A stretch of 32,614 bases of DNA from Candidatus Thorarchaeota archaeon (GCA_029858305.1 JAOUFI010000022.1:1-32614); one strand, 5' to 3'. Shown: positions 6,503 through 20,273, counted from the stretch's first letter. A program made the numbers and translations. The notes: a model not told the origin generated them from the letters alone.

Positions 6503-6640
6503 ACCTGCTGAAGAGCTGTTCGAAGAGGGTTATGGTCACTATTTAGCGCTTTGGCTCTGTGAACTCTTATTTGTATGAAAATTGTCTACTTGGAAAGCCT
6601 TTTGTGCAATCCCGCATTGATTATATTTGGATTGAATAAG

Positions 6641-6874
6641 ATGAACATACTAGATAGATTCTTCGACATGTTTGGAAGAAGACGTGCACTTAGGATGGGT
6701 GCTGTATCACCACCAGATGATCTCATTGCTTACCTCTACAAAGTACGCGCTGCAACCTACCTAAAGATTACAGGAAAGACTCTTCCAAACTATAGCATGC
6801 CAGCTGAGAGTGGTGCCGAAGATATGACTCGAAACCTATCACCCTCTCGTAGACTTGCTAGAAAGGGTCTCTAG
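6641..6874 (+). CDS. Small basic hypothetical protein
   Basis: ORF in otherwise unoccupied space. ATG 6641 preferred over 6575 because a BRE/TATA-like GAAAGCCTTTTGT lies at about 6593-6605. No recognisable motif. Confidence 0.5.
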   Translation: MNILDRFFDMFGRRRALRMGAVSPPDDLIAYLYKVRAATYLKITGKTLPNYSMPAESGAEDMTRNLSPSRRLARKGL

Positions 6875-6924
6875 AAAGATGGAGTCCTCGTGACCCAATA
6901 GATTCTGTGCAGCTCTGACTCTTT

Positions 6925-6938
6925 GAAAGCATATTTAG
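6925..6938 (+). promoter_or_regulatory. Putative BRE/TATA promoter for the downstream sRNA
   Basis: GAAAGC-ATATTTAG; the TATA-like part lies about 25-32 nt upstream of the predicted sRNA 5' end (6963). Confidence 0.45.
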
Positions 6939-6962
6939 CCTTGTACCGGTCAAACATCACTC

Positions 6963-7039
6963 ATCGGGATGATGATGAATGCAGGGATGGTGAGCGAACT
7001 CATCACCGCTATGACCCGTTAAACCGCAGTCTGACCGAT
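6963..7039 (+). ncRNA. Box C/D 2'-O-methylation guide sRNA (predicted 16S rRNA target)
   Basis: Terminal stem ATCGG(6963-67)/CCGAT(7035-39); C box ATGATGA 6969-75; D box CTGA 7031-34. D guide TTAAACCGCAG (7019-29) is complementary to the recalled archaeal 16S segment CUGCGGUUUAA. Confidence 0.8.
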
Positions 7040-7078
7040 ATTACAGTTCACGAATATAATAAGGAGTAGTAGTAATAC

Positions 7079-7495
7079 TTGTCCCCATTTGTTTGTAACC
7101 ATGATGGTTCGTGTGAAGAGATTAGACTCTGTTGTACTGAAACAGAGATGACCCTATCTCGTGAGGATGCACAAAGAATTGAGTCATTAGGTTACAAAAA
7201 GGAAGATTTCCTAGTCAGAGTGATGGCAGGATTTTGTGAACTCAAAAACGTCGACGGACACTGTTACTTCTATGATCCTGAATCTAAAGTCTGCCGCATC
7301 TATGAGAATCGTCCGGAGGGGTGTAGGTACTACCCTATCATCTATGATGCTAGGAAGAGGAAGTGCATCCTTGACAAGGATTGTCCATCTGCGGTGACAG
7401 TCAGTCGCGAAGAAATCAGGAAGGTCTGCCATAGGGTGAGAAAGCTTGTAGAGACCCTTCGAGAGGAGGCTGCGCATGGTGAGAGCCCTTGCTGA
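7079..7495 (+). CDS. YkgJ-family cysteine-cluster (Zn/Fe-chelating) protein
   Basis: LCC, CYFYD...CRIYENRPEGCRYYP motif, additional C-terminal Cys. Confidence 0.85.
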   Translation: MSPFVCNHDGSCEEIRLCCTETEMTLSREDAQRIESLGYKKEDFLVRVMAGFCELKNVDGHCYFYDPESKVCRIYENRPEGCRYYPIIYDARKRKCILDKDCPSAVTVSREEIRKVCHRVRKLVETLREEAAHGESPC

Positions 7496-20202: not shown

Positions 20203-20273
20203 GACGGCTCAGATACCCCTAAGGTCGATCATTTGTTCACAATCTCGCAAATAAGGAGCTCATCACTGCCGCC
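20203..20273 (-). ncRNA. Box C/D guide sRNA (target unresolved)
   Basis: Minus strand: GGCGGC-A-GTGATGA(20266-60)...ATGATCG (C'-like, 20232-26)-ACCTTAGGGGTAT-CTGA(20212-09)-GCCGTC; 6-bp terminal stem (one G-U pair) in K-turn geometry. Confidence 0.7.

Follow-up and report, generated by a model that had tools for sequence, protein, structure and literature searches.

A 32,614-nucleotide (nt) stretch of DNA from Candidatus Thorarchaeota archaeon (GCA_029858305.1 JAOUFI010000022.1:1-32614), referred to below at its full length as the window, very probably encodes at positions 6963-7039 of its plus strand a double-guide box C/D small RNA (sRNA) of a Thorarchaeia (Asgard) archaeon, with predicted sites at C919 and C1354 of 16S ribosomal RNA (rRNA). 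Box C/D guide RNAs are a textbook class in archaea and eukaryotes. The assembly that contains the window, as contig C152, comprises 3.04 Mb in 205 contigs (88.9% complete, G+C 42.8%), and the candidate sRNA, 77 nt long, is intergenic, lying between plus-strand open reading frames (ORFs) at 6575-6874 and 7079-7495. An earlier reading of the window, here called the original prediction, had described a terminal stem, a bulge and boxes C and D, all of which are present, and had proposed a box C/D guide RNA, with which the conservation, the stem covariation, the complementarity to 16S rRNA and the presence of core-protein genes all agree.

The element has the parts that the class requires. Box C is near the 5′ end and box D near the 3′ end. 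The terminal C/D site combines a stem, a 3-nt bulge and an invariant GA in both boxes, and would presumably fold as a kink-turn (K-turn) in three dimensions. The class calls for a guide of 10 nt or more next to box D or D′, with its stable-RNA target at the fifth position; the D guide is predicted to pair over 12 bp in this way, and the D′ guide over 9 bp here and 12 bp in most relatives. The guide spacers, 14 and 13 nt here, are near the archaeal norm. On sequence and covariation, boxes D′ and C′ would provide a second site for the protein L7Ae.

Structure and covariation

Two alignments of the element were analyzed. The first (A1) is a MAFFT alignment of BLAST matches with 29 rows, which was fitted to no model and serves as the unbiased set. 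The second (A2) contains 57 distinct sequences in 87 rows and was fitted to a covariance model, and therefore leans towards that model. Under the K-turn model, 94.3% of the cells of A1 were paired, compared with 17-44% when the 3′ partners were slid by 1-3 columns (16-47% for A1 and A2 together). The covariation score was matched by 1 of 500 shuffles for A1 and by 0 of 500 for A2, in which double-sided changes occurred at 8 of the 12 pairs.

In the terminal stem of A2, pair 7-90 was UA in 26, GC in 13, UG in 4 and AU in 2 sequences, pair 8-89 was CG in 40 and UA in 12, and pairs 9-88 and 10-87 were G-C in 56/57 and 57/57, respectively. The check for covariation in related genomes that the original prediction had suggested is thus answered by compensatory terminal-stem changes in the 57 distinct sequences. 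The stem II pairs G6974-C7031 and A6975-U7030 were present in 29/29 and 28/29 rows of A1.

The boxes themselves were conserved in A1, as had been anticipated for the boxes and the guide. Box D was invariant (29/29 rows), as was the GATGA of box C (29/29, with one relative carrying a 3-nt deletion in the ATG repeat), and the D guide AAACCGCA did not vary. The GA of box D′ was kept in 27/29 rows and the ATGA of box C′ in most rows. The published consensus is RUGAUGA for box C and CUGA for box D (PMC7994747).

Covariation extends to the internal site. The closing pair 6994-7009 was AU in 11, GC in 10, GU in 7 and other in 1 row of A1; in A2 it was AU in 19, GC in 18, GU in 18 and other in 2, and the neighboring pair was CG in 55 and UA in 2. 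Among the lettered cells of A1, C7016-G6990 was paired in 21/21 and C7017-G6989 in 21/23. Six sequences had lost jointly the G before box D′ and the C after box C′, which amounts to the loss of one base pair (bp) of the non-canonical stem. D′ (GUGA) and C′ (AUGACCC) are accordingly modeled as facing each other in a true K-turn closed by a covarying 3-bp stem, and not in a K-loop. The internal stem-loop between D′ and C′ accounts for the length of 77 nt. The original prediction had called the C′/D′ boxes degenerate. C′ does deviate from the consensus at positions 5-7, which pair with the D′ strand; the boxes are not simply degenerate, given the K-turn that they are predicted to form.

The original prediction had also placed a hairpin, TGGTGAG/CGAA/CTCATCA, at 6988-7005. 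This hairpin is feasible in the present sequence, dominates its single-sequence fold and could possibly exist in the free RNA. As a conserved structure (6988-94 with 6999-7005) it was rejected: only 77.3% of the cells were paired, 11-12 sequences were unpaired at two of the pairs, and position 2 of box D′ varied (U, C, A) with no compensation on the partner strand of the hairpin. The loop at 6997-7006 contains the motif CUCAUCA (CUAUCA or CCAUCA in relatives), whose reverse complement occurs as the UGAUGA core in boxes C and C′ and which is also able to pair with the GGUGA of box D′; in the free RNA, this conserved loop may take part in an alternative structure. A further antisense role for CUCAUCA, beside the two guides, was provisionally rejected, as its best rRNA duplex was 8 bp and drew on loop positions at which this genome and most relatives do not agree.

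Table 1. Features of the candidate sRNA and its surroundings (window coordinates)
Feature	Positions	Strand	Sequence, pairing or basis
Putative promoter block	6925-6940	+	BRE (B recognition element)-like GAAAGC, then TATA-like ATATTTAG; sequence, conservation
TATA-like element	6930-6938	+	CATATTTAG, inside block GAAAGCATATTTAGCC (6925-40)
Terminal stem, 5′ strand	6963-6967	+	ATCGG; pairs with 7035-7039
K-turn bulge	6968-6970	+	G6968, A6969, U6970 (G-A-U); sequence
Box C	6969-6975	+	AUGAUGA (ATGATGA in DNA); sequence, conservation
D′ guide	6976-6989	+	6981-6989 (GCAGGGATG) pair with 16S 1350-1358; G6985 opposite C1354
Box D′	6990-6993	+	GUGA; sequence, conservation
Internal stem-loop between D′ and C′	6994-7009	+	GCG 6994-96 pairs with CGC 7007-09
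Loop of internal stem, 10 nt	6997-7006	+	Holds conserved CUCAUCA; sequence, conservation
Internal K-turn bulge	7010-7012	+	U7010, A7011, U7012; sequence
Box C′	7011-7017	+	AUGACCC; sequence; C7016/C7017 pair with G6990/G6989
D guide	7018-7030	+	7018-7029 pair with 16S 916-927; G7026 opposite C919
Sequence within D guide	7019-7029	+	TTAAACCGCAG, with T at 7030; sequence
Box D	7031-7034	+	CUGA (CTGA in DNA); invariant in 29/29 rows
Terminal stem, 3′ strand	7035-7039	+	CCGAT; pairs with 6963-6967
Downstream gene, 138-aa CxxCxxCC (PF03692) product	7061-7495	+	AAGGAG 7061-66, TTG start 7079; Pfam match 47 bits

Predicted target sites in 16S rRNA

The D guide (7018-7029) forms 12 contiguous bp with 16S positions 916-927, comprising 10 Watson-Crick pairs and 2 flanking G-U pairs, and this duplex is the best that any part of the 77-mer makes with the host 16S and 23S rRNAs. 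G7026, the fifth position from box D, lies opposite C919, and the D guide would most likely direct 2′-O-methylation of that nucleotide. The D′ guide (6981-6989) forms 9 bp, including 1 G-U, with 16S 1350-1358 in this genome; G6985, the D′+5 position, lies opposite C1354, which the D′ guide is predicted to address here with less certainty. When the host 16S was aligned to an E. coli 16S gene, the E. coli equivalents of C919 and C1354 were positions 952 and 1382, respectively; the E. coli copy used is 17 nt shorter before position 515, and the offset was corrected via standard primer sites. These assignments match those proposed earlier, namely a D+5 target C at about E. coli 952 and a second guide at 6981-89 pairing with about 1378-1386, with one G-U. 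No tRNA target better than the rRNA sites was found among the 24 tRNAs parsed, a set that is incomplete in a genome about 89% complete.

The earlier claim of an 11-nt match to conserved 16S rRNA stood as to the pairing and failed as to the expected letters. The host 16S reads UUGCGGUUUAAU where CUGCGG had been expected, and the expected 11-mer CTGCGGTTTAA is absent, its place being taken by GAGCTTGCGGTTTAATTGG. The lack of CUGCGGUUUAA from the host 16S had been named as grounds for abandoning the prediction; the host does lack it, having U for C at the first paired position, and the pairing survives as G-U or A-U. The same U is a family trait. The D target is covered by 24 of 30 family 16S loci, of which 23 share one sequence across it, with U916 at the position expected as C; the remaining one (G070) has two differences further downstream and keeps U916. 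Most family guides read CAAT before box D and form A-U with U916, and those of this genome and some others read CAGT and form G-U. Every version of the D guide fits the 16S of the family itself rather than the general archaeal consensus.

In most relatives, the D′ form GAAGTAGGGATG pairs with 16S 1350-1361 over 12 bp with 2 G-U, a duplex matched by 22 of 3000 shuffles (3000 shuffles were made per guide). The D′ target ACGTCCCTGCTTCTTGC was found in 13 of the 16S loci read, and the others have point variants.

The family 16S genes showed further features. In the host, the 16S (C205:137705-139206, minus) and 23S (C205:65200-68309, minus) genes share a strand and are unlinked, with about 70 kb between them. 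In four genera, a hairpin-forming 16S insertion of about 30 nt follows directly after CCCTGC (L128 in G030, L135 in G067, L136 in G074 and L137 in G029) and falls within the stretch paired by the D′ guide in other genera. Many 16S genes of the family either far exceed 1.5 kb (2411 nt in G035, 2278 nt in G080 and 2293 nt in G015) or are interrupted at model position 828/829, with several contigs ending at 828; this suggests large insertions (rRNA introns) there, which also break assemblies.

Protein genes and proposed mechanism

Genes for the three proteins that the class requires, L7Ae, Nop5 and fibrillarin, are all present. L7Ae was identified by TIGR03677 with 137.3 bits (cut-off 134.6), and L30e is encoded as well. 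The aNOP56/Nop5 gene is a 453-aa ORF scoring 425 bits (E = 2.5e-127), below the equivalog cut-off of 452, and fibrillarin (232 aa) scored 268 bits. The latter two form an operon (L034:964-3023, on C205) in which the Nop5 stop overlaps the fibrillarin start. The C-terminal tail of Nop5, about 45 residues, is rich in Lys and Arg.

From these components and the known workings of the RNA class, the following mechanism can be proposed. Transcription would start at a BRE/TATA promoter belonging to the sRNA, which would probably form the 5′ leader of the CxxCxxCC gene downstream and would then be trimmed to the part protected by protein. L7Ae would bind the terminal K-turn (box C, box D and the 5-bp stem) and also the internal K-turn (D′, C′, the 3-bp stem and the 10-nt loop), and a Nop5 dimer with two fibrillarins would assemble on the L7Ae-bound K-turns. 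With the D guide on 16S 916-927, fibrillarin would methylate the 2′-OH of C919 (E. coli 952); with the D′ guide on 16S 1350-1361, C1354 (E. coli 1382) would stand at the fifth position. The ribonucleoprotein could also hold the distant strands near the start and end of the 16S 3′ major domain together during assembly.

Conservation and distribution

A BLAST search with window positions 6900-7100 as the query covered 60 relatives, 36 of them from the same family and 24 from outside it. The element turned up in 28 of the 36 (E 7e-65 to 9e-8), and the 24 gave no comparable match. The matches begin at query positions 57-67 and end at 137-154, corresponding to window positions of about 6956-7053, so that conservation is bounded by the element itself (about 6960-7039). 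In 17 of the relatives listed, the match starts further upstream, at query positions 19-23 (window about 6920), and takes in the promoter block. The TATA-like element that the original prediction had noted lies in this block, with its 3′ end about 25-26 nt upstream of the terminal stem. The block GAAAGCATATTTAGCC is identical in most same-genus homologs, and in distant homologs different TATA-like blocks rich in A and T take its place at an unchanged distance; we infer a promoter function for 6925-6940 from its sequence.

When a covariance model trained on 29 sequences was run with the stricter filters of Infernal, 15 of 26 family genomes yielded a single copy apiece, and 124 genomes from 26 further families of the phylum yielded none. 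A laxer model search of five non-carriers recovered one extra carrier, G087. We also searched the GTDB species set with a pattern consisting of box C and the D guide. Among the 80 stretches listed out of 84, 53 were archaeal and 27 bacterial. By title, the archaeal matches comprised 37 from Candidatus Thorarchaeota, 6 from Promethearchaeota, 9 from an archaeon or uncultured archaeon and 1 from Hermodarchaeota, and all 53 also fit the covariance model. The bacterial matches were taken as chance (a prior estimate had been about 17) and were not run against the model. Altogether, 57 distinct sequences carry the element, all from one family of Thorarchaeia, to which the sRNA family is limited as far as searched.

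Two genomes of the same genus, G013 (92% complete) and G001 (97% complete), hold decayed copies at the syntenic site (L181:1290-1503 and L182:1912-2125, minus strand, respectively), with the flanking genes kept. The middle of the element still aligns in these copies, and the TATA block, box C, box C′ and box D have all been lost. Such joint loss is expected if selection maintains these motifs elsewhere.

The element was unannotated, as had been claimed: Rfam gave no match at gathering thresholds anywhere in the window. In a permissive search of 6800-7150 (351 nt), the best sub-threshold match was RF02338 GlsR16, a Giardia box C/D small nucleolar RNA (snoRNA), with 20.3 bits against a gathering threshold of 100 (E = 0.032). 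The two RNAs have in common box C, a D-like box and a similar internal CAUCACCGCU-UGACC stretch, a resemblance at the level of motifs without family membership. Assignment to an Rfam family through such weak C/D-box matches was rejected, since the scores are below the gathering threshold. A strict scan of the 3.04-Mb genome for box C, box D and the stem returned 19 matches, and the reversed genome gave 6. Of the 19, 5 fall outside long open frames, and the candidate sRNA is one of these. Further candidates from this census are on contigs C8 and C148. Against such a control, this census is too crude to give a typical sRNA length for the lineage.

Alternative explanations

Several observations count against the assignment of a double-guide sRNA. 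None of the 24 sequencing runs listed for this DNA is recorded as RNA. RNAalifold, run unaided, predicts the terminal stem and not the internal K-turn, and shuffled sequences fold as well as the single sequence does (z = 0.08); both results are usual for this class of RNA and lend the internal K-turn no independent support. The departure of box C′ from the consensus at its last three positions belongs here as well. In A2, 53 of the 87 rows were found by the pattern that fixes the D guide, which makes the invariance of the guide in those rows a matter of construction. The losses in the two same-genus genomes imply that the RNA is dispensable there. Taken alone, the complementarity tests of the D guide are modest, the observed duplex being matched by 56 of 3000 shuffles for the guide of this genome and by 90 of 3000 for the form of its relatives. 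For the D′ guide of this genome, 1351 of 3000 shuffles equal the observed duplex, which is not significant alone, and three other rRNA sites score close to it. The 1-nt insertion U6980, common to this genome and its two nearest relatives, breaks the longer D′ pairing known from other relatives. Finally, relatives vary by 1 nt in how far the D′ core lies from box D′, which would place D′+5 at C1354 in some and at C1355 in others.

On one alternative reading, the sRNA is single-guide in this genome, with the D guide at work and the D′ half rendered non-functional by U6980. A D′ duplex of 9 bp with one G-U that so many shuffles equal speaks for this reading, and U6980 is limited to the three genomes just mentioned. 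In several distant members (among them L055, L086, L104 and L054), moreover, the D′ guide has been swapped for an unrelated sequence while the D guide was kept, a replacement that corresponds to the guide turnover known for archaeal sRNAs (PMC7994747). On the other side, the 9-bp core including the D′+5 pair is intact, the insertion turns one U-G pair into C-G, and a bulged U6980 would permit three further D′ pairs (by eye from the sequence, unscored). We consider a single-guide sRNA in this genome possible, if rather unlikely.

The positions of the two sites raise the question of whether guide pairing itself is the main function. The predicted target nucleotides are about 435 nt apart in 16S, near what we take to be the start and the end of the 3′ major domain, E. 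coli 949-960 being presumably the 5′ strand of helix 30 and 1378-1389 the junction and the 3′ strand of helix 28. The sRNA could then act mainly as an rRNA-folding chaperone that pairs with the helix-30 and helix-28 strands, methylation being absent or incidental at one or both sites. The 1-nt shift in D′ spacing with the pairing core kept fits selection on pairing over the exact nucleotide, and there is a published precedent (PMC4644070). Pairing alone, however, would not need the boxes, the spacing and the D+5 geometry of the D guide, all of which are invariant, and the fibrillarin and Nop5 genes are present. The chaperone and methylation roles are mutually compatible, and a function mainly as chaperone appears improbable. 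That a double-guide sRNA bridges the two ends of the 3′ major domain in addition to guiding methylation is plausible by analogy.

The location of the element bears on a third possibility. The gene order is ABCE1 (minus), a 99-aa ORF, the sRNA, the 138-aa CxxCxxCC (PF03692) ORF and a PHP-domain ORF; of 32 related loci examined, 31 have the CxxCxxCC gene after the sRNA and 27 have the 99-aa ORF before it. In one genus, the CxxCxxCC homolog (L185, G032:C59:6942-7346) contains an in-frame TAG. AAGGAG and the TTG start lie 22-40 nt downstream of the sRNA here, and in most same-genus relatives the CxxCxxCC start is about 21 nt past the sRNA 3′ end, an arrangement that makes a common transcript for the sRNA and the CxxCxxCC gene likely. 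The element might thus be a K-turn leader that binds L7Ae and controls translation or stability of the CxxCxxCC gene, and not a trans-acting guide; L7Ae-dependent K-turn regulation of archaeal mRNAs has been proposed (PMC5539422). Such a leader would need neither two guide-length spacers nor the full C/D and C′/D′ layout, and the most conserved stretches complement the host 16S exactly at the D+5 and D′+5 registers. Archaeal sRNAs are, in addition, commonly excised from longer transcripts beside genes (PMC7994747), as a double-guide sRNA would be here. We regard a purely regulatory leader as very improbable.

Chance co-occurrence of motifs without function, which the shortness of boxes C and D and the 6 matches in the reversed genome might suggest, is refuted by the element-bounded conservation across 57 distinct sequences, the compensatory changes in two helices in A1 and A2, the invariant guides, the conserved promoter and the joint motif decay in two species. 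The D-guide shuffles (56 of 3000) and the strict genome scan (19 matches against 6) also speak against chance, with the BLAST conservation weighing most.

A second box C/D sRNA in the window

The window contains a second box C/D sRNA at about 20203-20273 on the minus strand, with a terminal stem of the GCGGC/GCCGC type, box C GUGAUGA and box D CUGA. It spans 58 nt from box C to box D and is without an internal helix. Of the 24 genomes searched in the genus, 22 have it, its conservation again bounded by the element; its D guide CGACCTTAGGGGTAT is invariant and its D′ guide varies by species. A search of rRNA and the 24 tRNAs parsed gave no convincing target, the best duplex being 10 bp with 2 G-U to 23S. 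As this sRNA is compact, the helix-closed layout is a trait of the sRNA family at 6963-7039 and not of the lineage. The eukaryotic-like layout suggested in the original prediction therefore holds as far as one internal stem-loop supplies the extra length, and not as a feature of the lineage.

Relationship to known systems and significance

The nearest counterparts are Nanoarchaeum equitans sR17 and sR15 and Pyrobaculum calidifontis sR56 (Dennis et al. 2015, PMC4644070), which belong to the same class and use the same proteins. Like the Thorarchaeia sRNA, they have two guides with sites that are distant in 16S and close in its secondary structure, around helices 28-30 of domain III. Their type of target is given there as A915/U1371, G930/G1218 and G925/G1358 in pan-archaeal numbering, and sR17 and sR15 are described as double guides that reach over a long range to opposite strands of 16S helices 28 and 30 (PMC4644070, PMC7994747). 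These RNAs have no detectable sequence relationship to the Thorarchaeia sRNA, for which no Rfam family reaches its threshold, and the exact nucleotides given differ (C919/C1354 in host numbering). They are also compact, whereas the C′/D′ site of the Thorarchaeia sRNA is predicted to be closed by a paired stem with a 10-nt loop. The archaeal C′/D′ motif is described as a K-loop, and the archaeal length range as 50-70 nt (PMC7994747).

In its internal D′-C′ stem-loop, which would give a K-turn, and in its length above the archaeal range, the Thorarchaeia sRNA resembles eukaryotic box C/D snoRNAs. An internal helix joining D′ and C′ in such snoRNAs was reportedly described by Kiss-Laszlo and colleagues in 1998. 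It differs from them in that 77 nt is only just above the archaeal range, in its archaeal guide spacing of 12-14 nt, in its own archaeal promoter, in its site in an mRNA leader and not in an intron, and in the archaeal protein trio.

We found no description of an Asgard box C/D guide RNA in the literature searched, in which the slash of "C/D" was not matched by the search, so that absence from print is not established. What is new is this sRNA family and the detail of its helix-closed internal K-turn; the class, the mechanism and the idea of a long-range chaperone were already established, and the finding changes no principle. It provides a well-supported Asgard example with two directly testable predicted sites in 16S rRNA, and the covariance model can be used to annotate the family in Thorarchaeia genomes. 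The decayed copies in two same-genus species are natural null alleles, in which rRNA methylation could be compared without genetics.

Asgard archaea are the closest known relatives of eukaryotes, and Snu13 is described as binding K-turns only. A helix-closed internal K-turn in an Asgard sRNA bears on the origin of eukaryotic snoRNA layouts and of this K-turn-only binding. A bolder reading, which we regard as quite doubtful, is that of a family-specific Asgard sRNA with the conserved function of clamping the ends of the 16S 3′ major domain (helix 30, 5′ strand; helix 28, 3′ strand and junction) while the small subunit assembles, and whose C′/D′ site has moved from the archaeal K-loop to a helix-closed K-turn like that of eukaryotic snoRNAs. 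If it were true, this family would be a living intermediate in the change from sRNA to snoRNA architecture.

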